Positions 11,115 to 52,534 of a stretch of DNA of 64,000 nt are shown one piece after another. Numbering within the stretch: position 1 is the stretch's first letter; each line of letters opens with the position of its first letter. Source of the stretch: Dudresnaya verticillata (taxonomy: Eukaryota); NCBI GenBank assembly GCA_977862235.1, contig OZ374557.1:806001-870000 (forward strand), given 5' to 3'. The notes beneath the pieces were generated by a model, which was not told the origin of the DNA, did no database searches, and worked only from the letters and a program-made list of their open reading frames with translations. The translations under genes were made by a program, and so were the position numbers.

Positions 11115-11180
11115 ACGGGAGGGTTGAAGGCTACCGTTTGGAAAGGAAAGTAGGCCACGCAAGTTGGGACGGTGCTGTGG

Positions 11181-17273: not shown

Positions 17274-17411
17274 GGAAATGGATAGATGATTCAAGAATCA
17301 AGATTCTGGATAGATGGGCTGTATAGCCACATGGATAGATGCGGAAATGGATAGATGACTCAAGAATCAAGATTCTGGATAGATGAGCTGTACAGCTACC
17401 TGGATAGAGGC
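17274..17411 (+). repeat. About 69-bp tandem duplication in the 3' noncoding region of B
   Basis: GGAAATGGATAGATGA(T/C)TCAAGAATCAAGATTCTGGATAGATG... occurs twice. Confidence 0.8.
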
Positions 17412-19132: not shown

Positions 19133-19467
19133 AGGTCGTCGTACTTATTGCCACTTCGGCTTTGAAATCTACGTCCCGAGTGCGGGATATAGCCAGAAAA
19201 ACGGCGCGTTATGCCGAAACGGGCAAACCGAGAATTGGAAACGCGCCGACACGCGATAATTTCAACCAGCCGCTCGAGGCTTTCACGCGAAACCGATACT
19301 GAATGCCCGTCGAGACGAGAAGCCCGACGCCGCGACGGACGTTTTGGTGGCGGTAACAACCGCCCTCAGCGGGCCGTTGGGGACGTCCACAACGCGTCCG
19401 CACCGCCAGGGCCAATGGAAACAGCCTTGCTGGCTTCGTGGGTCTCCTAGCTTTACAAAGGGGGCCG

Positions 19468-20158
19468 TGTGGTACAATGAACCGCCAGCGGCTGTAAGCA
19501 CGTGCACGTGTTTTGCGCCTGTAATCCGTGGGTAATATTGCGCGTGGCATGCGCCTGTAAGGCGCTGCACGTACTGGTGCGCTGTAAGGCCCGCATACAT
19601 TGCTGGCCACTCTGTACGGCATTGCTTGGAACAGCACGACGCCAATGAGATGGCTAGCCGTGATTGGCTGATTTACCATGGTGTTACGCGCAGGAGCGCG
19701 TCCGAGTCATAAGCACCTTACGTGCGCAGGGCGGAGTACGACCGCTCACTACCTCATTGTAATTATTAACGCTAACTTCAATAGCTTAGAATAGGAATAG
19801 CGGCGAAGGCACTTTCGGTCTTCGCCATATTTATTGCGCCCCTGACTAGCAGGGGTCTGCTGAATAGAACCCTACGGTGGGTTTCGGGTCTGTACTCTTT
19901 CTTGGATCTACACGGGCTCACCGTACTCCCCCTTCCAGGTGCTTTACAAGCTTTAGCCTCCTACGGCTTTGTACTCTACGAGTGTTAGTGTGGCGCCGCC
20001 CCTTTTCCCTTTCTTTCAGGCACGCTAGCCTTTTTCCCCTTTTCCCTCAAGTCTCTACCAACTCCCCATTGAGCTACCCTCGTTAGGGTGTGTGCGCGCA
20101 CGGGACAGCTGTCCTTTCCGTTTAGCGGGCTACTGGCTCGTCACGCCATACTACTACA
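19468..20158 (+). repeat. 3' LTR of element B (691 bp)
   Basis: TGTGGTA...TACTACA, preceded by PPT and followed by TSD. Confidence 0.93.
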
Positions 20159-20723
20159 TGTGGGTGTCTGCGTGTGTCGCAGGGTGAAGCCTGCCCGTTT
20201 TTGAATGGAATTTGCCGCCCAAAATGCAATGGTGCGATCGAAATGGCTCGTGCGCTAATGGTTTCCGAGCTTTTCAAATGTTTGTGCGGTTCGGCTACCA
20301 TTTCTGGTCAATGTTGGCAAAAAATAACTACAATTCTGATCCAAATTACCGTGGTGATTCAGAAATAGACGGGATGACGATATCCCATATCAGCACTGCC
20401 CCGTAGTGCGATATCGGGTTTCGCCTTGCCCCACAGTGCGACAGGCGGCTATGAAGGCCCACCGATGGTCGAGACTCCATCAAAAACTGAAGCATCATTG
20501 TGTTCCCTGCGCAATTCATCCTGCTCAGTAACTCCCACGAGGTCTCGGTTATGATGGTTTGAACATATGCACGGCATCAAGCTGTACCCCATTCGACAGG
20601 AAATCTGGCCAACTGGCGCATTCCCCACTCCCTCCGGAGTGAGCGTCTTCATACAAGCGGTTCACTCCTCGCCCGTATCGCGTCACCATGCTCTTCAGTT
20701 TTCCATCATCAGTTTCTTGATGG

Positions 20724-21344
20724 CTAGTACGGGACGTCGCATGCAAGGTTGGTCACTCGCATTCTTCTTGTGGCAGCGATGATGCTATTACCTCGGTTTG
20801 CATCGTCATCAGCGAGCCCCACCCTACCCATCTCATAGCTCTGCTCTGCGTAAACACGTTCATCACCGAGAGGAGCACTTCCCGAAGATCTGACATCACC
20901 AGTATCCAAAGATGCTTTAGAAAGATTCAATCTTCTAGTACGGAGGCCACAATCGAGAAAGTTACTTTTGCTGACCGTATCCTCGACTACTACTATCATC
21001 AAATCACCTTGACGGAGCATACGCAAGACGTCGGCCACGGCATCATAGCGCTCTACTGCCAAAGGGTCTGTGGCAGTATGTCTGTCTTTCCCTTTATACT
21101 TCGATTCCCAAGCTACTTTCGAAGTACTCGTAGTCTTTCGTGTTGTTCCAAGGGTCTGTGTGAAGAGTCTACGGAGAGCAACTCTGTGCTGCGGTACGTG
21201 CAACGCCGCGGCTACCGTTGCTGCCAGTGTTCTTGGTCTCCTGTAATCTCCCCTACTGACTTTTAGCACTGCCGAGACTATAGAACAAGCCGGCAGTAGG
21301 GAACTGCTCTCACGATCCGCATCATCTTCTAAACACACCACCAC
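20724..21344 (-). pseudogene. Unidentified protein-like ORF remnant
   Basis: 206-codon frame with globular-looking composition; flanking frames have many stops; no family recognised. Confidence 0.25.
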
Positions 21345-22402
21345 ACTTTAGTCTTCCGACAAGCCTCACCCAGGAATACCACACCGTCCATGTCATCCTA
21401 GGACCCCGTTGAGCATATTTCTAAATATTGCAATAGCCCATCACTGTCAATCCCAGTTCCTGATCTTCGACGAAAATGCGTTTTCCGGGGACGGTCTGAT
21501 TCCCAACATGGTGCTACTGGAGTTGCTGGGTTAGTTCCCAGCAATGGCATTCAGAATGCTTTTGCATCCTCATGCAACTTGGCGAGCAGTTCTCAGTCAT
21601 CAGCGTGGCACGCGACTTCGCGAAATACCATTTAGCACCCGTAGCCTCTCGAATTGGGAGGAGCATGCGGCCGGCTGCAAAACCCATGCTCAGGGCTGGC
21701 AGGTGTCTCTTTGGGTTCCGGTTCTGTTTGGGTTCGGGTCACAGAGAATATTCGACCCGGCCATATCGCCAACTGTTGTCAATAGGTCATTGGTCATGGC
21801 AACAGAAATGGGTCTGGCTCGAGGTGAGGAGAAGAGAGCACCACTTGGCATGTTCTTCTTCGGTAGAGAGTAGATTTATTGGCGCGACATGACCAATGAG
21901 GGCTTGGGTTCCATACGTTAGTGCTTTAGCGCCATACGTTAAGTGTTTTAACGGCATATGGAGTACAGCCACTGGCTGAGCAGAGGTTCCACTGGCCACA
22001 CCCTGGGAGGGACAATGGACGTACGGAGCACTAAAGTAGCCCAGGTATCCTACTGTCAAGAACGTTGCGTTTTTGATCACTTTTTTCCAGTTCCCGACAT
22101 GCGGGGGTCGCAACGTGCGTGCAGCAATAGGCAGATTTGGCGTACAAATCTTTTCGTCTGCAATGCCAGAGGTTGTTCGACTGCGGCATTACTGCGGGTA
22201 TTGCGTGTGCTTGCCTTGCTTACCTTAACGACTTCACACGCAAAAACATTATTAGTATTAGAAGAACAATTTAAAGAATACTACGACACAGACAAAAAGA
22301 CTTCATATTGCAGCTAGCGTTTTCGAAACAACAGAACGCCGCGTCAATAGGTGATGCACATCAACAACCTGGGGTGGTAGGAATACGCCTAGTATATAAG
22401 CA

Positions 22403-23653
22403 TTAAGTTCGAGCACTCACCGAGCGCCGGAGTGTCCCTCGCATCAGTTTGAAAACACTGTGGAAGGCAACTTGAATCATCTCTGGGTACGACACATCAT
22501 ACATTGTGAGCGTAGTCCCATCGTCGTGTTCCGATTCCTTCCAGATATGAGTGAAAACAGCATTGACAACCTTCACGCGCCTAACACATTTCACGAACTG
22601 GCCGCAGTACTGCTCGTAGCTCAGCGATTCACCCCACAACCGGATCTTGTGGTTCGGGGTGCCACAAGGCAATGCACCCGGTGGACACAAAACACGAGCA
22701 ACAACTCCCTGTTCATGAATCAGGTCTTCGCGGGACACTCCAGCCGCAAGCAAATAACTCTCTTCAACACACACACTTCCATCATCATTCGGGCTGGGAG
22801 ACTCTTCAGTAGTAGGTGTGCTGACCGCAGGGCTAACCTCTGCACTTGGGCTCGTCTCTACTGCAGCAGTGGGAGAGAACTGCATTGTCGGTTCGGGGGC
22901 GTCCGATGGGCTCCCTGTATCAACAGGAGATGTGCTTTCGCTTGTTGGCATTACGGTGGGCTCGACAGTCGGAGACGAACTGGCTGGGATTGGAAGTGGT
23001 ATTTCGGACGCCTTCGGGGGGTCAGTCTCTGAGACTGGTGGGGACGGCATTTCAGAAGGTATTTCAGTCTCCATAGGTGAATCTGTAGGTACAGGGGTGA
23101 TGGGGATCGGGGACGGCGCGATAGTAGGAGTGACAGACGGTGAGAGGCCAGGTGTCAGCGAAGGTGAGGGTGATGGGAGCGGAGAACTGAGATCAAGGGC
23201 AGTAACAGATATTTCCCAGCGTTTTGAGCATGTACATGGGTCACTCGTGTCAGTCTTGCGACGAGGAGCGCAGGATGTAGGGTCGAAAAACTTCTGTCCG
23301 GAGGATACTGGCGTTGAGGAGTACACGAGTCGGGTCGTAAAGTTGAGCAGTTGCTGCCGATAGCGACAACCACCTCGAACACCCACGAAGAAGTCACGAC
23401 TTGGAAGAGCAGTGCAGCAGCAGCCCGAACGCTCCTGCAGGCCCGGCGAGTTGCACTCTTTGATGCATGCTTCGATAGCACGAGACTCAGAACCACAAGA
23501 AGATTCTTTTCGTTCTCCATAGAAGAAAAGAGCCTGTGTGGTAGCAAAGTAAGCTTGGTTATCTTCGGTCGCAGGAATTGTCCGAGGTGAGGCAGTGCTT
23601 GCATCTATCAGGAACCAGCACAACAAAGCAAGAAACTTGGAGTAGAACCACAT
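22403..23653 (-). CDS. Secreted protein: signal peptide, Cys-rich N-domain, Pro/Ser/Thr stalk, Cys-containing C-terminal domain
   Basis: Intact intronless 416-aa ORF; hydrophobic N-terminus MWFYSKFLALLCWFLIDASTA; PSPSPS tract; C-terminal CVEE...RVLC...CGTPNH...YC...C...VN pattern resembling a family I recall from red algae. Confidence 0.85.
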   Translation of the reverse strand: MWFYSKFLALLCWFLIDASTASPRTIPATEDNQAYFATTQALFFYGERKESSCGSESRAIEACIKECNSPGLQERSGCCCTALPSRDFFVGVRGGCRYRQQLLNFTTRLVYSSTPVSSGQKFFDPTSCAPRRKTDTSDPCTCSKRWEISVTALDLSSPLPSPSPSLTPGLSPSVTPTIAPSPIPITPVPTDSPMETEIPSEMPSPPVSETDPPKASEIPLPIPASSSPTVEPTVMPTSESTSPVDTGSPSDAPEPTMQFSPTAAVETSPSAEVSPAVSTPTTEESPSPNDDGSVCVEESYLLAAGVSREDLIHEQGVVARVLCPPGALPCGTPNHKIRLWGESLSYEQYCGQFVKCVRRVKVVNAVFTHIWKESEHDDGTTLTMYDVSYPEMIQVAFHSVFKLMRGTLRRSVSART

Positions 23654-24207
23654 GTTTGGGAGCAGAATCCGGTAATGGGCAAGTTAAGCAAGGCAGGATC
23701 ACTGTATGCCAGCTTTGGTAAGTAATGGAGGGAGGAAGAGGGAGAACGCTCAACGGGGAAGTGCAGGCGAGTGACGGAGCATTAGCAAGGAGGGTGGGTG
23801 TGGGAATGAAAACCACGCAGGGAGTGGAAAACAGATAGAAAATTAGTGTAATCAAGAATTGGCAGAAAATTGCGAAGGAGATTCGGCTACAGTTCACGTC
23901 AAGAGCAGGATCTGCAACTGTACTGTACTACTGTACAGTAGAGAGCTTACGGCCCGACATTTCTGCAAATGGATGACCAAATCAAATAAATAATTACAGC
24001 ACTTACAGATGTTTGCTCATGACTGCAAATGCCCGTGGCAAGATTTGCTGAAATGTGGCCGTTCGGTCATGACGCGTGCGCAAATCTTTCCCGCCATTTC
24101 GCCAAGTGCGTACCACAAAGTGTACCACAAACGAAGTCCACGCACTCACAAAGGGAACCGGGACTTGCACTGCAGCCTGCCACCTTGCCTCTTCCTCACC
24201 GATCAAC

Positions 24208-24913
24208 ATGGCTGTCGTCGCCATCGATGCGGACAAGCCCAAAGCCGACCCGCCCCCACCGCAACCGTCTACGCCTTCCCCCGACGACAGCACCGACGCC
24301 GTCGTCACTCATCCAAGCGAGGCTGTTCAGAAGAGCAAGAAGGGCAGGCGTCCAAAGTTCTCCGCCGACCAGGGCCTCGCCATCCTGCGAGAGGTCGCTG
24401 CCTGCAAAGCGCACATCGCATCGTACGGCAGCAGAAAGGTTCTCTTCCAGAAGGCAGCTGACGGTTGCAACAGAAACCATCACTTCAGCGCTGAGAAGGT
24501 GGACTACAAAGCCATGCAAGATCGCTACACAAGGCTGCAGAGGGACTTCGACAGTATGGATAGGAAGGAGAGTTTGATGTCTGGAATAGGTCGGGAGATA
24601 GGCGAGGCTGAGAAGTTACTCAGCATGATGAAAGAGGCGCGGGTTTGGACACGCGGGATGCGCAAGAGAACTTGAAAAGGAGGAGTCCAGGGTGCGAAAG
24701 GAAAAATGCTAAAGGCCAGCGCAGAGCTGGTCAGGATGGCGATGGGTAGGAACTCGACTAGCAGTAGCGAGTCTGAGCGAGAGGGGCAAGGCGCCGTAGT
24801 GCGAGGTGGGTCGGCGAGGAAGAAGAGGCGTGTCGTCAACCATGGTGAACGGCTGGACGGGGAGCTGGACAGGTTTTAGAAGTCTCTTCAGGGCGCGGAG
24901 ATGGAGCAGCTAG
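24208..24913 (+). pseudogene. Harbinger accessory Myb/SANT-like protein, 5' part
   Basis: RRPKFSADQGLAILREV...LFQKAA...VDYKAMQDRYTRL...SGIG; reads EMEQL up to the TSD of C. Confidence 0.8.
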
Positions 24914-25588
24914 CGTGGTGAAGTGAGCCGTGGCGCGCATGCGGCACGCCGACGGCGAGCCAACCGTAACGGGTGATGCGGCAATACGCCACGCTGATGA
25001 TCTGGCAACGTGTAACCGTGTCGGATGTTGTGCGCATTGCTGTACGCGGGTACGCATTTCTGTACAGCAGTGTAGCGCACCAGCCATACCGGAGCATTTG
25101 TAGTGTTTATTCTTTATTTTTAGTGAGTATCTGTACAGTATGTAGAGTAGTGCGCCAGCCAATAAGAACGCTGCGCATGTCCGTGTCGGAGATTGGGACC
25201 AGCAGGGCCGATTCCACCATAGGACCAGACCACTAGGGTCTGGCCCCCACGGACCGGACCGCTCGGTGCCACCCTGACTTGTATATCAGGGCGGCACCGC
25301 AGCGGCTCCTAAGGTAAACGGGTAAGCAACCTTAGCCCAATCCTTTACGGTTTTCCCCGCGCCGATCCCGTTGCGGTCTACCACCACCACCGTTACGGAG
25401 TCCGTCCCGGCACTTGTACCACCCCCTTGTCTGTTGCTTCCCAATATGCGTCTCGGTAAGCCGCTCGCTGTTCTCCCGTCTCGGTGCGAACTGCTCTACC
25501 ACCCCGTGGAGGTAGTGTTGCTCTCGTCCGTTAAGGAAAGTCATGCCAGCTGTCCGTCTCGGAGTTCGTGGGTTTTCACTACACCACA
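24914..25588 (+). repeat. 5' LTR of element C
   Basis: Direct repeat of 35603-36277, about 16 substitutions by eye. Confidence 0.95.
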
Positions 25589-25593
25589 TCTTT

Positions 25594-25611
25594 TGGTCTC
25601 CCGACCTAGAA
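25594..25611 (+). promoter_or_regulatory. Primer-binding site of element C
   Basis: TGGTCTCCCGACCTAGAA 5 nt after the LTR end. Confidence 0.88.
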
Positions 25612-25736
25612 TACCGTCACGGTTGGAAGAAACAGCCGTCGAAATCCGCTACGGTAGGAATTCGGCTGTGCCGACAACCCGTTACGGAATATTGGATAGA
25701 CAAGCAAGAACAACCGTTGTGTTCCGTTAAGGCATC

Positions 25737-28220
25737 ATGCAGAACGAAGAACACGCAGACCCTCCCGTTACGGAACCTAAAGCGGGTGACACTACCCCCG
25801 CTGCGCGCAGTCTGCGCAGTGAAGAAGGTGAAATCCGTTCCGGAGTGGAGAACCCAGAAGACATCCTTAAGGGTGCTGCTGGTAAAGCTCCCCGTTCCCG
25901 TGTCGGATCAGACGCCTTGAAGAAGGCAGCTCCGCAACCCAAGCCGGAATTCCATCGGGTCCACTGGGTCCTGTCGGAGGTCCTTCCTAGGGTGTTAGAG
26001 CATCTCCGATTGAAAGTACAACCTGGAATGGTAAAAGAGGTGGAGATATCCCTCTCGGAAACTGTTCCGTCTTTTGCTAATTCCTATCTGGAGCAGCACC
26101 TTCCTCGGATAGTGCAAGCTTTGATCCTACAGGAAAAGGTGGCCGCCGAGCTCGAGAGCCAGATTGCTCCCGGCATGGCAAGGCCTCCCACTACGGAAGC
26201 TTTTACTGAGCAACCACCGTTACGGAATGACTTCCCGGTCGAGGGAAGAACGCAGCAGCCGCAACAACCCCCGTTATGGGATTGCCGCCGGGCACAGTAC
26301 CCTCTGGGCCACTGCCACCGGCTCCCGTAACGGATTCTCAACATCAACACGCCCCTGCCGGACCAACACGCACTCAGCCACCGTTACGGTATTCCCCTGG
26401 ACACGTAGATGTGCCTACGCCAGGGCGCTATCAGCAAGAGCGCTATACCGTTCCGGTTCGATCAGGTGGAGGCAGCGACCATCTCAGCGATGCGTCCAGC
26501 TCACCCCATCCGAGTCGGAGGACCGGTCTAGGTCGGCATAAACGAGATGCCCGACACTCCCGCTCTGATCCTCCCCGTCGGTCACACATGGGCGACCACA
26601 CCCAGTGACGACGCTACCAATCCGGTATGGAATCCAATGAGAGCAGCTCTGAGGATAGCCAACACCGCTGCCGCAAGAGGAGAAACAGAAGATCGCGGAA
26701 ACGTGAAAAAAGGCATGACTCCTCTACCTCTACGGATTCAAACTCAGAGATTTCTTCCGTAACGGATAGAGAATAGGAACCGGGCCAGAAAACACGGTGC
26801 CAAATCCGGAAAGGTGAAGGTAATCCGTCCGCTACATGACAAGTTTGTCAAAGCGCTGGACTACCGCACCTACCGATTGGATAAGAGGAGTAAGACATAC
26901 GGCTCTAAGTTCTCACAGAACATGAGCCGTATACGGAAGAAACTCGACGTCCAAATGTCGTCCCATACATTCGATGGGACGGACCCTATTACCGTCTTGG
27001 GTTTTCTCGCCAAGTTTCGTGACGGTTGTAACATCAACGGCATCGCCGAAGGGGTTGCCGTCTGGTGCTTCCAGTTTTTCCTTAAAGGACAGGCCGAAGC
27101 CCTTCTACAGGCTAGGCTTGCTGGAGGTACCATGGCGGCACGTGGAGCAGGCCGAGATGCTCCGCACATATTCCGAGGTGGTGAACTTTTTATTGAGAAC
27201 CTACGCTACGGATGAAGTGATTGCTGAAGCCTATACGGATGTCAGCAACTTCAGGCAAACATCCGCCATGACGGAAGAGCGGTTCTCGAACCAGCTCTGG
27301 GCCAAGGCTCTCCGTTGCGGTACAGTATTTTCCGATCGGGCATTGAATTCACTGTTCGTTGAAGGACTCGTACCGGGTACTCGTCAACAGATGAGAAATT
27401 AGCTAGCAACGCATCCCCAGTTGGATTATCAGGCCATCACTCGCTATGCGACTGGCCTGGGTCAGTTCAGGTCAGTGCAGCGGGCAGCTCGACGCCAAAC
27501 CGTTCCGACTCACGTCTTTGATGGGCGCACTAAAGCACGCCCGTCTAAGGTGTTATCGCTGGATTCCGTATCGGATGTACACTATGAGGCGCAAGGGAAT
27601 CTTTCCGCTACGGATAATCAAGTGCTAGCCGTCGAGGGAGGCCACGGTGCCGCTACGGGAACGAGCACGGGGGTTACCTTTTCTACCCCGTACTCCTCGC
27701 CCCCGCAAAGCGTCCACCCTACTCCGCCCAGGATTCCACGCGCGCAAGGTCCCCCTATGGTGGATCTCGCCCGGCTCCTGGCCCCCAACAGCAGCCGAGT
27801 CACCGTTACGGAAATAATGCCCACGATGGGCGAGGACAGCAGCAACCAGCACCTCCGCTACGGGATGAGTCGGATCCTCGGGTTCGACGCCTTTACGGAA
27901 GTGGTAACTGTCGCATCTGCCTTTCGCCAGAGCACGTTGTTTGCCCATGGATACATGACGCCGATCGGGTTAGGCTTATGGAAGAGCGCGAGCGCAACTT
28001 CCAGAAGCACTACCCTGTAGGTCGCAGGTTCGTAGTAGGAACCAGTTCGAATCCGCAAGGGAATCGGGGCAGGCCGCATACGCCCCCTCCGCAACGGAAT
28101 GCCGCGATACTATCGGTGGAGGACCATGAAGGAGTGGAACTCGCAGAATTGCGCGAGCCCATGGAGGCGGATCCGACTGGTGCAACCTTGAATTCGGAAA
28201 ACTCAAGGGGGGATGCGTAA
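25737..28220 (+). pseudogene. gag: gag of element C, disrupted
   Basis: ALDYRTYRL, FDGTDPITVLGFL and FLLRTYAT motifs shared with gag of A and D; several frameshifts. Confidence 0.85.
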
Positions 28221-31200
28221 GGGCGCCGCCATCCCCGCCTCACGTCGTTCCACCTCTCGCGAGTGTGGACCCGGGGATCGGCGAGATACCGTTACGGAAC
28301 TCCCATTGGCTTATCAGACCAATGATACTATCTGCTTTATGTAACGTCAAAATTACAAGATGCAAATTACCGTGGGACGGACAGATAGCGTGATGCTTCC
28401 TTTAATCTCCGTCTTGGACTCTGGCGCTGGGCCCAATCTCATTAGTGCCAGGCGCCTTCCGCGCCAATGGCTCCCACTCATACGCCCAGCAGCCAGTCCT
28501 CCATTACGGGATGCGTCTAATCGCGCTATACGCCCTCTTGGTCAGATCCAACTTTTCGTCCGTATCGGAGAGCTCCGTGCTCGCGTCCATTTTCTAGTGG
28601 TCGCGAACTTGGCGACTCCCTGTATATTGGGAACTACCTTCATCGACCGCTACGTGAAGGCAATCCTCCCTCCGTTACGGAAAGCTGTTTTTCATCATTA
28701 CCCACCGGTAGCCCTTGTTGGTCAAGCCAAAATTCCGAAGACGGGAACCACTGCAACCCTACAGCCCTCACCTCTTTCTACCGCTACGGTTTCTCAGAAA
28801 ATTCGTTTAGCCAAATCTACCCTTATTCCCCCTATGACTCAAACCACCGTAACGGTTAATACCCCCACTGGTGGGTTATGCTTTCTACAAAATCATCCTA
28901 AGCCGGCTTTTAAGCACCTTACGTTAATGGCTAATGGTATTATGGATGTTGTACCTAACAAACCGTTTCGGATCTGGGTCTCTAATCTTTCTAACAAGCC
29001 GGTACGGTTGCCCAAATGTACTGTCGTGGGCCTCGCCACTGCTGTCCCTTCTGCTATTTTTACCGTTGACGGTATACCTCCATTTAAGGAGGGGAGGAAT
29101 TATTCAATCATTTAATTCTAACCTTACCTCCGAAAAGGCCAGCAGCATCTCCCCTCACGACAATGAAGTAAGCAAACCCGTAACGGAAACTAAAAATACT
29201 ACCGACTGGAAGGATCAAGTCCAGATCGGCACAGAAGAAGCATCGCTCCGTAATTGGATTTTAACCCTACTCGAGGAATATAAGTCGATGTGGAGTGGCG
29301 ATCTAGGCAACATTACAGCTGCCAAGCACCGCATCGAGTTAACTCCCGGAGCGAAGCCAGTATATCAAGCCCCATACCGTGCCGGACATAAGCAGCGAGA
29401 TCTCGAAAAGACAGAGATCGATCGTATGCTTTCCGCTAAGGTAATTGAACCAGCCTCATCGGAGTGGGCCAGCCCCGTGGTTTTCGTTCCAAAAAAGGAC
29501 GGCACCATGCGGTTCTGTGTTGACTATTGAAGGCTCAATTCCGTAACGGTTAGGGACTCATATCCCTTGCCCAGGATGGATGAGTGCATAGATTCCCTTG
29601 GGGAAGCTACTGTATTTACCACCCTGGATTGCAATAGCGGATATTGGCAAGTCGAGATTCCGGAAGAGGAAAGGGACAAAACTACCTTCACTAACCATTT
29701 TGGCTTATACCGTTTTCGGAGAATGCCATTCGGATTGAAAAATGCACCGGCAACCTTCCAACGGGCAGTGGATATAATCCTTTCTACGGTTAAATGGCAA
29801 TTTGCCCTCGTCTACCTAGACGATGTAATTGTCTACTCAAAAACCGTTACGGAACATTTCCACCACCTGAAGGAAGTCCTTACACTTTTACGATCAGCTG
29901 GGGTAACGTTGAAATTGTCAAAGTGTGACTTCTTCAACGCGTCTGTACAATACCTGGGGCATGTTATCCGTCCCGGAAAATTAGAAGTGGATAATCGGAA
30001 TATCCAATCCGTTAAGGTCGCGAAGCCGCCGACTAACCAAACGGAATTGCGATCCTTCTTGGGAATGTGCAACGTGTATCGTCGATTTGTACCCAACTTC
30101 GCTCGGATCTCAGCACCGCTAAATAAGAAAACCGGCAAGGGCTCACCGTTTGAGTTTGGAATATTATCCGATACGGAATATGAAGCCTTCGAGGAACTGA
30201 AGAGACGCCTTATCTCTCCACCTATATTGGCTCTACCCCGTCACGGATATAAATATACGTTGGACACTGACGCATGTTCCCATCAAGTCGGCTGTGTCCT
30301 TCTGCAGGAACCGAATGGCGATCACCTCCCTATTGGATACTGGAGCCGAAGCCTCACCGATGCGGAGAAAAATTATACGACAACCGAAAAGGAATGCTTA
30401 GCCGTGGTCTGGAGCATGTTAACACTCCGACCCTACCTTTACGGTGACAAGTTTATTCTCCGAACAGATTACGATGCCCTGCGGTGGATCCTGAACCTCG
30501 CAGACTCATCTGGCCGCCTAGCCAGGTGGAGGCTCCGCCTATCGGAATTTGAATTTGAGGTGCAATACCGTCCTGGAATTAAGCATCAACTCGCCGATAG
30601 GATGTCGCGACTCAGAACGGATGGCGGTGACGATAGACCTTTGGATGGAGAAGTACCTTGCTTGGTCGCCGAAAACGCCGTCGACGGATTCTATGAGCAT
30701 GGAGTTTATTTAACCAATTGGGCTACATCACAAGAAACCGCTACGGACAATAACGTAATATGCGCCGTGGGGCCCGCCAGTGGGAGTGCATCCGCCTCCC
30801 CTGACAAGCCCGACGCAATAACGTCACGGTTTACTGTAATCCAAGAATCCGACGTTAAGGATGAGACAATTACCAGGGAGGAGTTCCTTGAAGCGCAAGC
30901 CAGAGACCCTTTCTGCCGTCCCAAAGCCGATGCGGTAGGCTCCCCTGGATCACAGTTTGACTATGACCGTAACGGATTCTTGGCACGCAAGTCCCAATTG
31001 GATGGTGCTCTGCAGAAGGTGGTGCCAAGCGAACTCCGTGGACGGGTATTGTATTTATCCCACTACACCCTGATGTCGGGTCACCCAGGTGGAATCAAGA
31101 TGTATTATACACTCCTACAGGATTATTCTTGGCCTCATATGGCCAACGATGTATTTGAATCCGTTCGGACATGTCGCTCCTGCGTGAAGACAAAGGGAAC

Positions 31201-32517
31201 CCGCTTTCGGAATCAAAGATTTATGAAGCTTTTCCCCGCTAGCGGACCTTTGGAGTTTGTCGCTATCGACATTCTTGGGCCACTTCCGAAGACAAAACCG
31301 GGTTATGTCTACGTTCTGGTAATAACCGATCGGTTCTATAAGCTGACGCGTTGTATTCCGTTACGGACAACAACAGCCGTTGTGGTGGCTAACGCCTTTC
31401 TGGACGTTTGGGTGTATGCGTATGGCGCACCCCAATTTGTCCTAACCGATAACGGACCGCAGTTTACTGCTATGTTCTTTGACGCAGTGTGTTCCCTACT
31501 CGGAGTCAGGCATCTACTTACCGCTGCCTACCATCCGCAGACAAATGGGCAAGCTGAGCGGTTTAATAAGACAATCGCCCAACGTTTGCGCCATTATGTT
31601 GAGGATCATCACTCCGATTGGGATTTGTACCTGAAACCGTTGACATATGCGTACAACATGCAGGTACACCGTATTACGGAAACAACACCATTTGATTTGG
31701 TGCTGACACGCCACCCATCGGACATTGTTGTACGAGGGGCTCCTGTCGAACATCAAGAAACCGTTACGGAAGGGCGTATGACCTCGGTGCTACAAAAGCG
31801 GAGCACCATGCGCCGTTTACGGTATGCGCTCCAGACAGCGCGGACTAAGCAAACAGTGGCTCAGCAAAAGCCAAGGCACTGTTTGACCGTAAGGTGCCCT
31901 TTAGGCCTATAATCCGTAACGGAGATCAATTCTATGTCGACAGGCTGCCCCATAACTTGCGGCCGGCCGAACGCCGTGAGCGGGACCGATTGGAAGGCAA
32001 ACCGGATGATGTGGGCGAGGTGGCTCAAGAAATGAAGAAACTCCTCCCGAGAGCCACGGGGCCTTATGAAGTGGAATCCGCAACGGAACATACCGTTACA
32101 ATCCGCAAGGAAGGGGTATTGATCCCAGTAAGTATCGATCGCATCACGAAGGTTCCGATCGGAGTTGCGGTTCAGCTGGCACCCTTGACAATGCCGCCTG
32201 TCACGCCATCAACCGTTTACGGAGAAGTAGTGCCACATCCAGAAGGTACTACAGTACCGCCTACACCGTCAACGGGAATTACAACCTCCGTAGCGGAACC
32301 CCTACAATCCGATACGGAATATGTGATCGACAAGATTGTCGGTCACCGCGACGAACCTACTGGGATGACATACAAAGTCCGCTGGTATGGTGACACTTTT
32401 GAGCCCGCGGAGGAGCTGCCGCAGAATTTCATCTACCGGTATTGGAAGCAAAAGAAAAAGACATCCGCTAAGGGTAAGCCACGGCGACGGGCTAATCCAA
32501 AACGTCACTCACCGTAA
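28196..32517 (+). pseudogene. pol: pol of element C (PR, RT, RNase H, integrase, chromodomain)
   Basis: VLDSGAGPN; YLDD; DTDAC; GHPG...CRSC; TDNGPQF; NGQAERFN; chromodomain YVIDKIVGH...YKVRWYG. Confidence 0.95.
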
Positions 32518-32925
32518 CGGACAGTTGGAGTGCTGGGGTGTGAGTAGAACACACAATGTTTATCGCAAGCTAAGATCGAGGCATAATGGAAACCGTTAAG
32601 GAGATGGTCGAACTGTAACTCTAAGAGTTACGTCGACGCCGCTTCGGAGCAGGGGCAACTGTATCTTCCTCGTTGCTCCCCTGACCCGTTCGTAATCCGG
32701 GTTCCCCACTCGGATCCGATTGGAATACGCGCTGCGTATTATCTCCCAAGACGCGAATCGCACTATCCATGCGCCGGCGCTGACGACGGACCACTGCGCG
32801 GAGATGAATTACCTGTTCCATCGGCCCCTCCTCTAAGGTTAGGACTTCCTGAACGGATCCTGGCAATGGGAAGCGCTGCGTACGGCAATTGCCCCGTAGC
32901 ACCTGTAACCCACTTTCCGTAGCGG

Positions 32926-35469
32926 CTAAATGAGCCGTAACCGTAACGGGGGATCCTCATCTTCTTGAAACTCTACCTTCAGGGAGATCGACGGGTTATC
33001 CCTAACCCCGGCTTCGATTGAATGCTCCGTTGAGGAAACCACCAATACGGATGGTCCTGACTCGGGTGAAGGTACGTCCTTCCGCAGCGGTGGATTCGTG
33101 TCCTTCTCTGGCGAGGCGATATAGCTTTTCCGTAACGGTTCAGGACTTGACGCGGGGACCGAGGGCTTGTCTCCAGTTGCCCCAACACTTGGGCGCTTTG
33201 CAGCCACTTCCGATACGGTGATCGGTGCCTCACTCACCGCTGGTGTGGGAGTGGGCGCCGACAGCGGAGCACTTGACGGGGGCGGTTCAGCAGCTGCAGG
33301 CATTTGCGTCGCAGGAGACAGTGCCGCCGGCACAGTATCCGGCGCCACTTCCGAAACGGTCTGCTCCTTTGAGGCCCCCTTCTCGGACGGTGCCGCAGGC
33401 TTGGGCACCGCCATAGTCGGTGCAACCACAGCTATGGGCGTTGGGGCCTTATCCGATACGGGAGTAGTAGTCTCACAATCCACATCGCGCGACGTGGGTG
33501 TCGCAAACACCGGAAGGATTGGAGCGGGTGTCTTCTCGCTACCCGCTGACATTGATGCGATGGGCATGACCTCCTCCTGTTCTTCCAAGAAGGGGTCCGC
33601 TTCTTGCTGCCTCACCGTAACGGAATCGCGCGGGTCGATTGTAAGCAAACGCCCCGCTGCCTCCTGACAGCTCCCCCAATCTTCAGCCCCGTCCAAACCG
33701 TCACGGTACGCATCCCTTGGTGCTTGGCGAGGGGCATAGCCCCCATGGGCCTGCACCTCTAAGGCCAACCATTCCGGACGCGGATCTTCTCGATGAAGGA
33801 AATATGGCTCACCCACTCCGGGCCTAAGCGGGTGCACCGATAGGACACGGTCCTCGTCCCAACTATACCCCAAGAAGCTCGGAGTGCGTTGCCAGTCCTG
33901 CTCTCCATGTACGGATAAAAGACGCTCAACCCGATGGAGAGGGTACGCCGACCCCGTCACCAAATCGGCTACGCCGACTTGGCGAATTAGGGCGATCACC
34001 ATTACGGGAAGTTGAAAAATACGGCCACAGTCCCCTCCGGGCAGGTCATCCTCATCCTGTGGGAAGCATCGCCAGTCGGCTAACTTGGTGTTATACCGTA
34101 CTCCGTAATAGGCCACCTGGAGCCACGAGAAGAGCACCAGCATTGCCCATTCCGATCGGAAGATGCGTCACAGTACATCGAGCTGATCTTGATTCGGGGG
34201 ACGCTCTCCGTTCGGATGCTTGTGATTCCACTCGCGTTCGGTGAGTAAGTCCGCCGAGAAGTATGCCACGACGGAAGGCGTGGGGACAGACAACCAACGG
34301 GTCACCTCATAACGCTCCCACCATGACGGAGCTGTAAGGTACAATTCACGACGCACCCGATACGGAAGATGGAAGAACTCCTTAGTGTTCCACGTATACA
34401 GGATTGGCGAGCCAACTTGCATTCCGTCACGGGAACGAGTTCGCAAACGGTGTTCCGTCGCGGCATCGTCCTTCCACCCATCGGCATAGCGGAACCAATA
34501 TACCGACTGGTCATAGGGGCGGTCGAAGCAAATGAATTTCACTCCGAACGGCGCACCCCGGAGACGGAAACCTTTGGCCAACAGGTGACTCACCTTTGCG
34601 GTATATCCTACCTCATCATGGCAGCGATACCACAACAAATCCGAAACGGGAGAGGTCCGCGCTTGACAATAGCCATGCACCCATCGGCTTTGCCATACAA
34701 ATTCTCTCCGATTCGGAACAACGCCAATGCATTGATTCGCCTTGAAGAGCTGCGCCATGACGGCCTTGTACCTTCTTGCTTCCAAAACGGTTGGATATTT
34801 CTCAATGTAGTAGTCCACCGTCATCGAGGGCTTAATCTTTGCCCTCTCCGCATCGGTTCTAGCCGGGCGCCCCGCGCGATGATCAAAGTGGTGCCCCGGC
34901 CAATAACCACTCGGGGCAGGGCCCTCTCCGTCACGGATATGTACCACCGGCCACCAAGGCCCCGGTGCAGGTGGATTGGTTTGCGGGGGCCCACGCATCC
35001 GTCTCGATGTACTTGAGGAAGGATGTAGACTAGCCACCATCCTACGACTCGGCATCGATACCGGTGTCGATGGTGTCCGTAACGGAATGGCCGGTAGGTC
35101 CACCAAGTTGAGCTCCTCCCCACCACGTCGGACCTCCTCGTCGTCATCCTTGGTCGCATCTTCTCCGTGACGGTGTGTCGCTGCATTCCATAACGGGGTG
35201 CTCCTTGTGGCTGGGCCAGCAGCAAACCGATTCGGATCGTAGACAGACCAGCCGCGGCCCGCCGATAGTGCCTGTGACTGTTCCGCTGCGGTAACGCCCA
35301 CGCGACCCCTCGTAGTGCGTGGTGCCACAACCGCCGAGGGCGAGGCCTGCGCTTGAGTCGAAGCATCCGTAACGGTAGGCGCACCCGGCGCTCTCGTCGT
35401 CGAGCTCGCGCGGGTACGCCGTGTCGATTGAAAGGGGGAAGGGGAGCGCTTGCTCTTCTCCCCTGCCAT
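32926..35469 (-). pseudogene. Antisense extra ORF of element C (about 847 codons, one in-frame TGA at 34168-34170)
   Basis: ORFs 34168-35772 and 32926-34143 are in frame; likely start MAGEK at 35469; Trp/Tyr-rich core flanked by low-complexity arms; possible frameshifted tail 32621-32902 ending PAPKRRRRNS. Confidence 0.8.
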
Positions 35470-35602
35470 CTTGGAAGCGGGTGCACGAAGGAGGAGGAAA
35501 ATTTGAGGAAGATAACCGTATCGGTTGTGTGTGGGTGTGGAAGCAAAGGTAATCCGTGACGGTGGGCGCCAGAGGATGTGGCGCCATTTAAGGAGGGGGG
35601 TC

Positions 35603-36277
35603 TGTGGTGAAGTGGGCCATGGCGCGCATGCGGCACGCCGACGGCGAGCCAACCGTAACGGGTGATGTGGCAATACGCCACGCTGGTGATCTGGCAACGT
35701 GTAACCGTGTCGGATGTTGTGCGCATTGCTGTACGCGGGTACGCATTTCTGTACAGCAGTGTAGCGCACCAACCATACCGGAGCATTTATAGTGTTTATT
35801 CTTTATTTTTAGTGAGTATCTGTACAGTATGTAGAGTAGTGCGCCAGCCAATGAGAACGCTGCGCATGTCCGTGTCGGAGATTGGGACCAGCAGGGCCGA
35901 TTCCACCATAGGACCAGACCACTAGGGTCTGGCCCCCACGGACCGGACCGCTCGGTGCCACCCTGACTTGTATATCAGGACGGCACCGCAGCAGCTCCTA
36001 AGGTAAACGGGTAAGCAACCTTAGCCCAATCCTTTACGGTTTTCCCCGCGCCGATCCCGTTGCGGTCTACCACCACCACCGTTACGGAGTCCGTCCCGGC
36101 ACTTGTACCACCCCCTTGTCTGTTGCTTCCCAATATCCGTCTCGGTTAGCCGCTCGCTGTTCTCCCATCTCGGTGCGAACTGCTCTACCACCGCGTGGAG
36201 GTAGTGTTGCTCTCGTCCGTTAAGGAAAGTCAGGCCAGCTGTCCGTCTCGGAGTTCGTGGGTTTTCACTACACCGCA
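35603..36277 (+). repeat. 3' LTR of element C
   Basis: TGTGGTG...CACCGCA; after PPT, before TSD. Confidence 0.95.
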
Positions 36278-36282
36278 GCTAG

Positions 36283-36485: not shown

Positions 36486-36605
36486 GCGTAGCGGGAGGAG
36501 CGATGACTTCGTCTGCAGCGACGAGCGCGGAGCAGGGGTCTGGGGGCGCAGCCCCCAGCGGGGGTTCGGGACGGAGCCCCCGATTGTTGGGGAGCGATTT
36601 TCGGT

Positions 36606-37703
36606 TTACTGGGGGGTGCGGAGAGCAATGTAGGCTGCTAACGATAGGGGTTCGCACCCAAAGTACTGGAATACCGTGTTACGATGTAAACAGATCCAAA
36701 GGTTGATCAGAACCATCGCAGCGATGTACAGCAGCACCGCAGGGGACTCCATAACCTTCATCTTTCTCTTGAAGTCCACAGCGGTCCTGTAGAGTTTTAT
36801 CTCTTCGTACAACCACTCCACGGTAACTCGGTTAGAGCTTGTGGCCGCATTTAGGGCGCTTTGTAAGGCGGAGAGCGCGCTTCCCTGGTATGGGACCTCG
36901 AGGAACGCGCGTGCGTTGTATCCGCTATCACCATATAAACAGTACTGGATGAAGTTAACCAGTAATGCCTCCTCCAGCATTTCGTCCGTTTTCGCTTCAC
37001 TGTACAAGTACCAGTCATGTCGTCTGCCTTGCACAGTCCCAAACGCATGTAGAACATAACCGTCCGGCGTCGTGATGGTCTGAAACTTGACGCAGTGAAT
37101 CCTCTTGTGTCCATTATAGGCGACGTTTTGCCTAGCGTTCCCGGTCGGTCGGGCTATGCCTAGGCGTGTCCCGTCGATAAAACCAACGCAGTTGGCCAAT
37201 GCCTCTGTCTTATCCTTGACGGCTTTTGCGTAGATAGCTTCTCTCTGTTCCATGAAGCAGGGTGGCACAGCGCTCTGAAGTAGATGGCCGTACTTTTGGC
37301 AGAACGCCCTTATCGTCTGCCAAAATATCTCTGACATATGCGACGACTGTTTCCCAAACATCTCTGCTACATCGCCCCATCTGCAGGGTGATGCAAGACG
37401 TCGTAGCAGCAAGCACGTGCTAAGTAACGGCGTCGTACCGTAGCCGTTTCGATCGGTTCGCAACGCCTGTAAACCGAGGTAGGGAACCAGACAGATGATG
37501 TCTGCTCTACAGAAGCCGAACTGCTCTAATGCTTGCTGCTCGGACATGCGTTCGAAGGACACGTGAAACGATATAGACGAGATGCGCAGCACTCGGAGGT
37601 TGCGTAGGCTCAAGGCCTTCCCTTCCTCTACGACTGATACGGCGGCACGGTAAAGGTCTCTGCGATAGCACATGCAGTACCTACGCCGGATCAGAGCGCT
37701 CAC
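36606..37703 (-). CDS. PIF/Harbinger (HARBI1-like, DDE_Tnp_4) transposase, start region probably damaged
   Basis: LLRRLASPCRW; CVGFIDGT; YNGHKRIHCVKFQ; GRRHD; YGDSGY; RVTVEW. Confidence 0.9.
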   Translation of the reverse strand: MSALIRRRYCMCYRRDLYRAAVSVVEEGKALSLRNLRVLRISSISFHVSFERMSEQQALEQFGFCRADIICLVPYLGLQALRTDRNGYGTTPLLSTCLLLRRLASPCRWGDVAEMFGKQSSHMSEIFWQTIRAFCQKYGHLLQSAVPPCFMEQREAIYAKAVKDKTEALANCVGFIDGTRLGIARPTGNARQNVAYNGHKRIHCVKFQTITTPDGYVLHAFGTVQGRRHDWYLYSEAKTDEMLEEALLVNFIQYCLYGDSGYNARAFLEVPYQGSALSALQSALNAATSSNRVTVEWLYEEIKLYRTAVDFKRKMKVMESPAVLLYIAAMVLINLWICLHRNTVFQYFGCEPLSLAAYIALRTPQ

Positions 37704-38682
37704 AACGACCTGCGCGGTTCGCAGGCGTCATATGTGCAGGTGCTTAGCGCAGTCCTTCTGCCGGTGAATCGCCATGACTGCGCGAAGGGGAAGAGGCTGC
37801 GTCTTTCCCGCGTGTACCTGTAAGGTCGGTATCAGCCCTGAGTGTAATACTCCCGCCACAGTCCAGATTCAACATACCGTAAGCCTGAACGGCTCGGCAA
37901 TGCCAATGCCGTAACGGAAATTTGGTCAGATAAATATCTTCGCAATTTTTGCCATGACCTTTGCAGTTACCCGTTCTACCGTAAGCTCTCTAGTATGAAT
38001 GAACATTGGAAAAGGCTGAGGTGCGTGGCGCGCAGCGCGCGTGTTGATCTGGACCCATCGGTGTCGCTGAGTGGCGCTGTAAGATACCTTACAGTGCTCC
38101 CGCCGCAGACAACCACCACGCTGTCCGCGCCCGACCCGCCTGCCCGACTGCAACTGGCTGGGCTACTTCAAGGCCTCGAAGACCCCTCTCCTCTCGACAC
38201 GATGGAAGTAGAAGAGTAAGCAGCATTGACGAGAACGTCCGTTGCGTCAGCCGCGCCAGTCTCCCATGGCCCTCTTCCCTCGCCTCCGCAAACCTTGCCT
38301 CCCCCTCTGACCCACTACTCTCGCTCGCGCCACACTTCGCCCCGCTCGCGTCCCTTCCTCCGCGTTCCGCGACCATGTGTGCCGCGCCCGTAGAGCAGTG
38401 ATTGTACACCACTCTCACGCAGCGCGCAGTTCGACCGCTTGGTGACGACATTCCGGATTCCATACCGTCTTCACGCGCTAATCGCGTCGCTTAAGCCTTC
38501 GTGCACTTCGACACGATTGTAAACCACGCCGTCAAAAAATGACTGCGAGCACACGCAGTAATACAAATTATTCTACTGCAGACAAGAAGACCGCATTAAA
38601 AGAGTTCCTGACGAAGGCTGCCAACGCATACAACTATTTGAGTGTAAGGATGTGCTTTCTCGGTCTCTTACGGAGTCCTGGA

Positions 38683-39994: not shown

Positions 39995-40343
39995 TAAGCC
40001 CTTCACTGTATTACAATGTTCTACAAAGCGTTCTCCATGCTATCGTTTGGTCTTCTCATCAGGGCAGGAGGATTAATACAGGTACGGCATATTGCCTGGG
40101 GTATTCGTCCACTGAAAAGCGAAAGGGAACAAGATAGTGCTGAATTTGGTTACCATCATTGGTGGCAGAAACTGTGGTCGCGTCCTCACCGCCATGATGG
40201 GCTCCTTGTCTGACCACACGACGGATAGCTTTCAATGGGTGGTCCAGAAAATTTCGGAGTGCTATGGTGTAGTACTGGCAATGGTCTCCATGTACCAGAG
40301 AACGTCTTTTATGCTTGCCGGTCTAACGGTCTTGAGCTATTAT
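39995..40343 (+). pseudogene. Degenerate MULE/FAR1-type transposase, part 1
   Basis: LVTIIG..N.GRVL....L.D.TTDSFQWV resembles the MULE core; continues after element D. Confidence 0.55.
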
Positions 40344-41175
40344 TGTAGTGCAAACGTCCTTGACGGAACACCGCCGAGCAGTTCGGGGCGCGGTGGGTAG
40401 CGACGCCCGTGGCGGTGAGTAGCCTCGTCTTGGGCGACTTGTGGTAGAGCAATTGACTCGCCTTGGGCGGACTGTAAACGCCCGAGGCGGAAAGGAAGGA
40501 CAAAAGAGAACAAAAAGGGAACACGTCAAAGACGGGTAGAGACGTGGAAGCACGGGAGGGAGACGCTTAGCCGTAGGCAGCGGTAGGGTACGCGCGTGCT
40601 GAACGGGGAAGTCTGGACCAAGGCCGGCTTTCCGGGAGTTTACCTCAACGTCTGAGACGGATCAACTAAGTATAGAACTACCTAGCGGCGGCGACGAGTG
40701 TGTAGGCGCCGCGCGGGAACTCGGGACACGTGTTGTCCCGAGGCGCGTCTGACAGATCCGTCCGTCATGCAGCCGCGCTCCTGACAGATCACGCTTAGCT
40801 TCCCTGCTCGAGTCCTTACACCTACATGTGGATGTACTTCCTTATAGCCGCATGCGCCCCATGGCGCGTGCGGTCTCGATCCGCACCAATCCCGATCCAG
40901 TCCGGATTCGGGCCAGCCATGCGGATGCGCCAGGCTTACAGCGAACGTTCCCGCCACTGCGCCATGCGCGTACGCGTGGCGCCGTACAGTGCCCGGGGTT
41001 CAGGCGTGCGGTCTGCACGCCAAGCGAGCCGTTCTGGCCCGAGTGGCTAGCGGCATGCGTCGGTGACGTGTTTGCGCCGCGGGCGGGTTGAGCGCGCCGT
41101 TGGCGGTCGTCCGTCGGTAGACGCTGCATATCAACCCGCTTGAAAGCGAAAAAGGGGGACCCCCCTGGCACTACA
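40344..41175 (-). repeat. 3' LTR of element D (832 bp)
   Basis: TGTAGTGC...GCACTACA; direct repeat of 52555-53469 lacking about 83 bp. Confidence 0.95.
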
Positions 41176-41608
41176 CGACCCCCTCCGAAAACGCGAACAC
41201 GTCAACCTGTTTCACCCTGCCTGCCTTACTGCGTCTGCGCCTCTTCCAGCGCCGATCGTGTCTGTCACCCGCGCCTTCGCGTCTGCATTTGCCCGCCCTT
41301 GGCGTTGGTTGAGCCCCGTCAAAGACGCACGTTCAGTTCCCCCCGCCTTTAGCGTAGGAACAATTCCCGTCGAATACGTGTCGTTGACTAACTTCGCCAG
41401 TGGCGTGCGTGAACCCCCGTGTTTGACGTCGTATCTGTGCACGCGTACGTGCACATACCGTCTAGGGCGTTTCTTTGAGTTCCGCCTTCGGCGTTGTTTG
41501 GTCCACCGTCGTTGACGTGTGTTTGTTGGCTTCCGTCTTTGGCGTAAATTCGACTTCGGAGTCAAAACCGTCGTTGACGTATCGTGTGAACTTCACCAGT
41601 GGCGTGCG

Positions 41609-52426: not shown

Positions 52427-52534
52427 AATGCAGTCGTAGAGTTGCTTGAACGTCGTGGACGATTAGCGACGGACGTCTAGAGACGGAAGGTCGGACGTCG
52501 CACGACGGAGCAACTTCGTTGAAACGTAGCACAC

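Follow-up and report, generated by a model that had tools for sequence, protein, structure and literature searches.

The closest described case of a short sequence that marks one transposon family is found in Arabidopsis, in the transposons VANDAL21 and VANDAL6 with their anti-silencing VANC proteins, where a 9-base family-specific motif is densely repeated and is bound by a protein encoded by the transposon itself (PMC5735166). The target is defined by motif density and not by a single site, and related families have different motifs (PMC5735166). A second term of comparison is given by the plant Ty3/gypsy elements Retand, Grande and RIRE2, which carry additional open reading frames (ORFs) in antisense between pol and the 3' long terminal repeat (LTR); the protein of Grande is described as nuclear, DNA binding is predicted for the TRP28 domain, and some elements of the Retand/Grande type have family-specific repeats in the same region (PMC11963269). 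Here we analyse a stretch of 64,000 nucleotides from Dudresnaya verticillata (contig OZ374557.1 of assembly GCA_977862235.1, positions 806,001 to 870,000 of the forward strand; hereafter the window, whose own numbering is used throughout) and within it element C (24914-36277, plus strand), a whole 11.4-kb Ty3/gypsy chromovirus LTR retrotransposon, which holds about one copy of a short palindrome every 134 bp over its entire length, both LTRs included, at a cost in codon choice and in some amino acids.

The VANDAL system and element C are alike in that a short motif (8-9 bp) is dense in one family and rare elsewhere, as 7.5 sites per kb in element C against 0.44 per kb in the rest of the window, and in that an accessory protein exists besides the genes for transposition (PMC5735166). 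However, the VANDALs are DNA transposons, and their motifs are described as non-coding, lying in one orientation and spread through tandem repeats (PMC5735166), whereas element C is an LTR retrotransposon in which the palindrome was dispersed by point substitutions in the LTRs and in coding sequence (23 of 85 sites in pol). The accessory protein of element C is a candidate binder of its motif. With Retand and Grande, element C shares a conserved ORF that is antisense to pol and lies between pol and the 3' LTR (PMC11963269). This ORF is unlike the Grande type because it has neither TRP28 (PF04195) nor another Pfam domain, and because its carrier is a chromovirus and not a Retand element; moreover, no element-wide palindrome is described for Retand or Grande in the accessible part of that source (PMC11963269). 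Keyword and 9-mer searches of the literature found no description of a retrotransposon saturated with a palindrome and, among the matches listed, no occurrence of the 9-mer spellings was related to transposons.

Short protein-binding motifs present in many copies are known also from the Su(Hw) array of Drosophila gypsy, with 12 sites clustered in the leader, and from bacterial uptake sequences and REP elements, which repeat a short motif in any reading frame and over the whole genome. Element C resembles all of them in the many-fold use of a short motif, but the bacterial cases are genome-wide and not element-specific.

The exact palindrome CCGTWACGG occurs 28 times in the window. A sequence-only reading of this DNA had reported 27 copies in element C, from 24964 to 36079, and one outside it, at 37909; all 27 were found again, and the whole-window count gave the copy at 37909 as the only one outside. 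In 100 dinucleotide-preserving shuffles of the window the mean was 0.65 (standard deviation 0.86, maximum 3). Two pairs of exact copies (24964/35653 and 25390/36079) are LTR duplicates, so that 25 copies are independent, and since the flanks around the copies are unrelated and the LTR pair is the sole long internal repeat, the copies are not pieces of a longer repeat. The many one-mismatch variants mentioned in the same reading are present as well: 48 in element C, including the three sequences that it had named, against 13 in the other 52.6 kb. Of these three, CCGCTACGG occurs 6 times and CCGATACGG and CCGTCACGG 5 times each. The motif enrichment in element C is confirmed as real and far beyond chance.

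CCGTWACGG is the core of a wider unit, W-CCG-N3-CGG-W, in which TWA is merely the preferred centre; the sequence-only reading was correct about the enrichment of the 9-mer, but the unit under constraint is the wider one. CCG-N3-CGG is found 85 times in element C and 23 times outside, and its total in the window (108) compares with 30.6 +/- 5.3 in the shuffles. When pairs of CGG triplets were counted in element C over all orientations and spacings from 0 to 12, the only enriched arrangement was the everted one at spacing 3, with 85 pairs against 2-16 at the other spacings. Inverted and direct pairs at spacing 3 number 5 and 10, and all other arrangements stay within about twofold of the background; with respect to this background, everted pairs are up about 17-fold at spacing 3 and about 2-fold at spacings 2 and 4. 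The centre of the 85 sites is most often TAA (15) or TTA (12), followed by CTA (6) and by TGT, TCA and ATA (5 each). Their flanks are T in 43, A in 28 and G in 4 cases at position -1, and A in 47, T in 25 and C in 5 cases at position +9, and in the 25 independent exact copies G never occurs at -1 nor C at +9. The T-centred exact form lies 11 times on the plus strand and 14 times on the minus strand, so that a strand bias is absent, and A- and U-centred copies stand at 14:11 on the sense strand. Among the 48 one-mismatch variants, the mismatch is never at positions 1, 2 or 9, only once at position 8, and in 34 cases within the central three positions (p 1.3e-8). Decayed stem variants in element C also show sense-strand G-to-A changes more often than C-to-T changes (34 vs 13, p 0.003).

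The motif field extends from 24964 to 36251, and it starts and stops with the LTR ends of element C: no CCG-N3-CGG site is present at 23000-24499 or at 36500-37499, and the density is 0 over the 1.5 kb upstream of the 5' LTR and over the 1.2 kb that follow the 3' LTR. Site density peaks in the LTRs, with 13.3 per kb in the 5' LTR (24914-25588, 9 sites) and 11.9 per kb in the 3' LTR (35603-36277, 8 sites), each including 2 exact copies, against 5.6-7.9 per kb inside. The sites are irregularly spaced (mean 134 nt, coefficient of variation 0.86), and no periodicity and no helical or nucleosomal phasing was detected (best periodogram power 4.9).

The constraint on coding sequence was evaluated in pol, over 4122 nt, with 2000 synonymous-codon shuffles. 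Exact copies number 9 against a shuffle mean of 0.31 (maximum 3), and CCG-N3-CGG sites 23 against 2.33 +/- 1.47 (maximum 9). Given the present protein sequence, synonymous codons could spell the exact 9-mer at 10 places, of which 9 are occupied, and CCG-N3-CGG at 33 places, of which 23 are occupied. The motif is read in pol as PLR, [STP]VT[VE] and RNG. That it is translated into peptides within pol, and that selection on the nucleic acid is its likely cause, had been proposed from the letters alone, and both the peptides and the shuffles bear this out. In an alignment with 20 homologous pol proteins, the motif was fitted through codon choice at conserved residues (VRIG, YRAG, IRPG, IPLR), whereas at variable positions the residues depart from those of the relatives toward creation of the motif (TVTV, PVTE, TVTE, DRNG, IRNG). 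The same alignment has no 3-codon insertions at the sites, which indicates that they arose by substitution; the insertion of a mobile 9-bp palindrome, which we also considered, is rejected for this reason.

Concerning family specificity, the sequence-only reading had suggested a comparison with the aligned codons of the other chromoviruses of the window (pol at 6-3140, minus strand; 12534-16840, plus strand; 45934-49685, minus strand). In all three genes the aligned positions are free of sites, also at identical peptides (YRAG, IRPG and PLR included). We also searched 80 metagenome loci whose pol is 40-63% identical to that of element C, hereafter the related loci, and exact CCGTWACGG is absent from all 80. 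In pol proteins of Chondrus, peptides that the motif could encode reach 5.7-6.2 per 1000 amino acids against a median of 1.0 among homologues; however, these peptides (RYG, PLRT) stand at positions conserved in the clade, and so they do not show that the motif exists in Chondrus elements. Taken as a whole, the observations support a constraint that acts on the nucleic acid and not on the protein, and that is family-specific.

The carrier has the usual parts of a Ty3/gypsy element. A 5-bp target-site duplication, GCTAG, can be read at 24909-24913 and 36278-36282, and the two LTRs, both 675 bp long and on the plus strand, end in CG...CA (5') and TG...CA (3') and differ from each other at 16 positions. 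The leader and a degenerate gag region (25589-28329, plus strand) are open in several frames and hold 20 CCG-N3-CGG sites (7.3 per kb), 8 of them exact; gag gives a weak Retrotrans_gag match at 26926-27402 (E 0.0037, under the Pfam cut-off). The pol gene (28330-32454, plus strand; 23 sites, 9 exact) was delimited by Pfam and tblastn and encodes protease, reverse transcriptase (RT), RNase H, integrase and a putative chromodomain. It lies in three frame pieces (28330-29092, 29093-31869 and 31870-32454) with one in-frame stop at 29528-29530, and so this copy of element C is no longer intact. One 793-residue frame matches RVT_1 (9-146), RT_RNaseH (241-340), Integrase_H2C2 (498-555) and rve (573-669), in the order RT, RNase H, integrase of Ty3/gypsy elements. 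The chromodomain match is under the Pfam cut-off (Chromo, E 6.2e-4, 20.1 bits against 25.1), and PF00385 is carried by most of the close homologues. Among named pol proteins, those of two red algae come closest, Chondrus crispus with 60% identity and Agarophyton chilense with 55%, and they point to a florideophyte red alga as the probable host; an unnamed match reaches 66%, the best value, and no relative was found among viral contigs. The interval between pol and the 3' LTR (32455-35602) contains 25 CCG-N3-CGG sites and the antisense accessory ORF (32929-35469, minus strand; 847 codons from the first ATG, with a TGA at 34168-34170). A polypurine tract, AAGGAGGGGGG, assigned by position only, lies at 35590-35600 on the plus strand, 2 nt upstream of the 3' LTR. 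The window holds no other DNA copy of element C, only three other elements with similarity at the level of RT. Just downstream of element C there is an ORF with a DDE_Tnp_4 transposase domain (36606-37727, minus strand; E 7.8e-19), and the exact copy at 37909 lies 180 nt beyond it.

What the palindrome may be for is a matter of interpretation. Judging from its sequence pattern, we tentatively read the palindromes of element C as sites in double-stranded DNA for a sequence-specific symmetric dimer, which seems to us quite possible, if somewhat short of probable. Each half of the dimer would read one CCG/CGG triplet across the fixed 3-bp spacer. Selection during the replication history of family C would have built the array and would keep it, and every DNA copy of the family would be coated or marked by the same protein; the predicted effect is a family-specific control of the chromatin or transcription of the element, such as activation or protection from silencing. 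The candidate binder may be a host factor or the protein encoded in antisense by element C itself, for whose relatives a coiled coil is predicted at the C terminus.

This reading is favoured by the dyad symmetry, the fixed spacing, the invariant outer bases and the tolerant centre, together with the lack of compensatory changes, the lack of strand bias and the marginal hairpin energy. The peak of site density in the LTRs, the family-specific constraint on the nucleic acid and the presence of a conserved antisense gene, with a diverged homologue in the other studded element of the window (element D, below), count on the same side. Since the outer bases are the most constrained and the centre is variable, the pattern fits half-sites with a spacer, and it is the opposite of what suits a 9-bp duplex between copies. 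Uncompensated single-mismatch forms are enriched in element C (CCA-N3-CGG 21, CCG-N3-AGG 18), while the compensatory double forms are not (A-T 6, T-A 5, C-G 4), and complementarity of the flanks is not above chance (29 observed, 33.2 expected). As an RNA hairpin the motif has a marginal energy, -0.2 to -2.0 kcal/mol. Exact sites are as accessible in RNA as GC-matched 9-mers (p 0.78 sense, 0.50 antisense), no link was found within element C between local folding z and motif count (Spearman 0.19, p 0.16), site-free windows averaging z -2.0, and no Rfam family reaches the gathering threshold in 24000-54000.

Sites of this geometry are known. Dimers of fungal Zn2Cys6 binuclear-cluster proteins, such as Gal4, Leu3 and Pdr3, bind pairs of CGG triplets whose spacing and orientation are fixed, the triplets being invariant and the spacer tolerant, and the everted CCG-Nx-CGG is a known class of Zn2Cys6 site. 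The likeness to element C is one of site geometry only: the family is, to our knowledge, essentially fungal, and among 21 ORF translations of element C there is no Pfam zinc-cluster match. Other commonly known half-sites, those of Myb (AACGG), SBP (GTAC) and bZIP proteins, were considered for the type of binder and do not fit a variable centre between invariant CCG and CGG.

All elements of the window were scanned for gapped palindromes, and element C, correctly singled out as studded by the sequence-only reading, is not the only such element. A further chromovirus, element D (about 40343-53469, minus strand; LTR limits approximate), is studded with a different palindrome, CGYC-N3-GRCG, or more generally CG-ab-loop-b'a'-CG. 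CGYC-N3-GRCG occurs 81 times in element D (6.2 per kb) and 15 times outside (0.29 per kb), against 8.7 +/- 2.9 in shuffles for the 96 of the whole window; CGCC-N3-GGCG accounts for 40 and CGTC-N3-GACG for 36 of the copies in element D. The third stem position covaries (CC/GG 40, TC/GA 36, mixed 5; Fisher 2e-17), and so does the fourth (CT/AG 11, TT/AA 7, CG/CG 6, GC/GC 5). Fully paired forms number 117, 54 and 28 with loops of 3, 4 and 5 nt, compared with 33, 23 and 19 in the background (39.5 kb). The predicted folding energy of the hairpins is -3.1 to -5.1 kcal/mol, and in the pol gene of element D there are 23 against 4.0 +/- 1.9 (maximum 12) in 1000 codon shuffles. The motif of element D, as far as its sequence indicates, looks like a single-strand stem-loop in its behaviour, unlike that of element C. 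At 43517-43752, in the region between pol and the 3' LTR of element D, eight of its hairpins follow each other at steps of 27-54 nt (27-30 nt for 6 of the 7 gaps), similar to a tandem array.

The antisense ORF of element C belongs to a protein family of its own. A HMMER search with 233 of its residues retrieved 76 proteins at E<=1e-3 (best 3e-20); among them are four clustered hypothetical proteins of Gracilariopsis chorda, under five accessions. A word-based homologue search returned no match. The homologues align across the TGA, so that the break in the ORF is a defect of this copy, and they have in common a domain, about 400 residues long, in which certain R, D, E and Y residues hardly vary. 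In element C the conserved domain is at about 33802-34899, and no exact site falls within it. Neither Pfam nor NCBIfam gave a family, at E<=1 in Pfam for the ORF pieces of the window and at E<=0.001 for 22 homologues. The structure models are confident: the predicted local distance difference test (pLDDT) score is 81 for the N-terminal model and 74-98 for blocks within residues 81-380 of the intact homologue P0134, whose C terminus is predicted to form a long helix. Structure searches gave no convincing relative: the best E values were 4.3 and 0.49 with Foldseek against PDB and 0.15 against BFVD, with VIA-align the N-terminal model reached a Z of 2.8 at best, while the full model, through its C-terminal helix, matched coiled coils alone (Z up to 5.7), and the best ESM Atlas score (0.87) is under the level that carries weight, the PARP-like rows there being leads only. 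A sequence profile search of PDB gave only weak matches, at profile positions 373-614 and mostly to coiled-coil proteins.

Of the 80 related loci, 26 carry the gene according to the profile of this family, and all but one of the 26 have it antisense to pol. A diverged homologue is present in element D at 42028-43525 (plus strand, antisense to the pol gene of this element), supported by hmmsearch at 42028-42432 (E 9e-4, profile 154-229), by hhalign at 42407-43525 (probability 74%, E 2.9e-5, profile 302-406) and by weak colinear tblastn matches; it is probably decayed. No accessory gene was found by profile in elements A (partial), B and E of the window. On the evidence of these profile matches, the gene is a feature of the clade, present in both studded elements C and D. 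Concerning other dispersed sequences in the related loci, CCCCGAGG occurs in both orientations at about 1-1.5 per kb in L005, L007, L011, L031, L062 and others, and its sites are kept at homologous positions among them. L005 has 12 copies against 1.6 expected, to which codon usage may contribute, and the median density is 0.94 per kb in loci with the accessory gene and 0.38 per kb in loci without it.

Several points weigh against a dimeric protein on duplex DNA. The core of the accessory protein has no match to solved or viral folds and no family annotation, and nothing marks it as DNA-binding. None of the gene-carrying related loci of at least 6 kb has a palindrome enriched near the level of element C: the enrichment score is at most 7.1 in these loci and about 27 in element C, the latter computed by hand with the same formula, and the link between gene and motif is therefore weak. 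The motif of element D, which covaries in the Watson-Crick sense and tolerates loops of 3, 4 and 5 nt, fits hairpins and not a rigid dimer; it weighs most, since the two motifs could be variants of a single device, and by parsimony the motif of element C might also act in single-stranded form. Finally, a dimer on duplex DNA does not account for sites throughout the coding region, and family C is represented by one copy.

The hairpin-like behaviour of element D keeps open a reading in RNA or single-stranded DNA for element C as well. According to this explanation, the main rival of the duplex reading, which we consider rather unlikely but worth weighing, the motif of element C would act in the genomic RNA or the cDNA, as a tiny stem-loop with a CCG stem and a 3-nt loop or a self-complementary "sticker" read by a protein of the element; it could help to package, dimerise or compact the genome in a family-specific manner, and the hairpins of element D would be the same device elsewhere. 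Such signals are well known: the HIV-1 DIS loop, Ty1 PAL and packaging-signal-mediated assembly all rely on short self-complementary or stem-loop signals that are lineage-specific and written into coding sequence. A retrovirus or RNA virus has between one and a few tens of such dimerisation and packaging signals, and these covary and act on a specific strand. The covarying hairpins of element D fit this picture, and their imposition on its pol gene beyond codon usage adds to it, whereas element C has more sites and neither strand specificity nor covariation. The two elements are nevertheless alike in site density (7.5 and 6.2 per kb), in a 3-nt centre, in GC stems that contain CpG and in the antisense gene family, and the A:U ratio of 14:11 at the centres on the sense strand would allow perfect 9-bp duplexes between copies. 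Against such duplexes, the centre, which would matter most to them, is the most variable part of the site; the missing compensatory changes and flank complementarity, the marginal hairpin, the weak tolerance of loop length (about 2-fold against 17-fold) and the lack of strand asymmetry, of preferential accessibility and of a link between motif count and folding also argue against action in the single strand.

Predicted folding in the window bears on the same question. In 200-nt windows, the four chromovirus regions all surpass dinucleotide shuffles in folding (mean z -1.65, -1.64, -1.00, -1.26 and -1.37), as compared with -0.33 in region E (55075-63025) and -0.28 in the gap 19801-24913. For A, 3300-11180, B and most of C, the regions in which each strand was folded, the two strands give the same values, and this folding excess is independent of the motif of element C. 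In the predicted folds of element C, site-to-site pairing involves 33 of 82 sites, and 78% of motif bases are paired against 62% overall; however, any GC-rich palindrome will pair with its other copies, so that this pairing does not count as independent evidence.

Short perfect inverted repeats of varied sequence are in 2- to 4-fold excess (z 5-14, dinucleotide shuffles) in A+ (1-11179), in B (11180-19800) and in element D. In A+ and B they have stems of 4-5 bp and loops of 3-5 nt and occur also inside pol; B alone has 41 hairpins of 5 bp with a 4-nt loop where 9.0 are expected. There is no generic excess in region E or in the gaps, and element C has only its own motif, which counts further against a single-strand role. 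The excess in A+, B and D shows that a process or pressure favourable to palindromes acts on these retroelements, and it is on this that another explanation can draw, in which the palindromes would be a functionless by-product of mutation, left over many replication cycles by fold-back template switching of RT that perfects quasi-palindromes, or by biased repair. Template switches alter several bases without a change of length, in agreement with the lack of indels at the sites, and the excess of sense-strand G-to-A changes in decayed sites is a bias of the retroelement type. Yet this mechanism leaves unexplained the fixed sequence, the preference for a TWA centre and the W flanks, the lack in element C of the generic hairpin excess, the near-saturation of pol (9 of 10 permitted places) and the absence of sites at the same codons of three related elements, and we regard it as improbable.

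Even less can be said for the sites as targets of a DNA-modifying or DNA-cutting enzyme, a methyltransferase or an endonuclease with a palindromic site of two CpGs, which is very improbable in our judgement. Homodimeric type II enzymes typically recognise palindromes of odd length whose centre is degenerate, and each site does contain two CpGs, so that up to 170 of the 895 CpGs of element C lie within sites (an upper bound, overlaps being ignored); 3 of the LTR differences hit sites, and 2 of these 3 look like CpG transitions. On the other hand, no domain of the methyltransferase or endonuclease type was found in the ORFs of element C (Pfam, NCBIfam), the CpG observed/expected ratio, 1.06 in element C and 1.05-1.20 around it, is near 1 and so gives no sign of decay driven by methylation, and a mobile element is expected to shun cleavage sites and not to gather them. 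Apart from the two LTR duplicates, nothing favours an artefact that would stem from base composition, from codon usage or from hidden repeats; its probability is practically negligible, and it is refuted by the dinucleotide and synonymous-codon shuffles, the unrelated flanks, the absence of long internal repeats besides the LTRs and the scarcity of the motif in the other 52.6 kb.

Some further features of the window may be recorded. Six palindromic boxes, CACGTGTA / TACACGTG, lie within 50 nt at 9424-9472. Two direct repeats that contain CAG/CTG-rich tandem arrays (55075-55537 and 62561-63025), 7.49 kb apart and 88-94% identical, are possibly the LTRs of a further element, E, which has no excess of hairpins or palindromes. 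A tRNA scan of the window returned none.

Where several transposon families live in one genome, each has to distinguish its own copies from those of the others and to cope with silencing by the host, and the only well-studied family-specific DNA code, that of VANC and VANDAL, consists of non-coding tandem repeats of DNA transposons. Element C appears to have rewritten its own genes in order to hold its palindrome at nearly every place that the protein permits, and element D appears to have done likewise with another palindrome. It is conceivable, although we think it doubtful, that families of red-algal chromoviruses each carry their own "barcode" palindrome (CCG-N3-CGG in element C, CG-clamped hairpins in element D) every 130-160 nt or so over the full length of the element, coding sequence included, read by an element-encoded antisense nuclear protein of an unseen fold. 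If this were true, a family could single out its own copies from the many related elements of the genome, and restrict activation, protection or packaging to them. A reader protein, if it exists, would provide a compact case of co-evolving recognition between protein and DNA (or protein and RNA) in a lineage that has received little study, and might supply new sequence-specific binders. Even without a reader, the constraint at the level of nucleic acid on pol is unusually strong, with nine of ten permitted places occupied, and it matters for the modelling of codon usage or selection in such elements.

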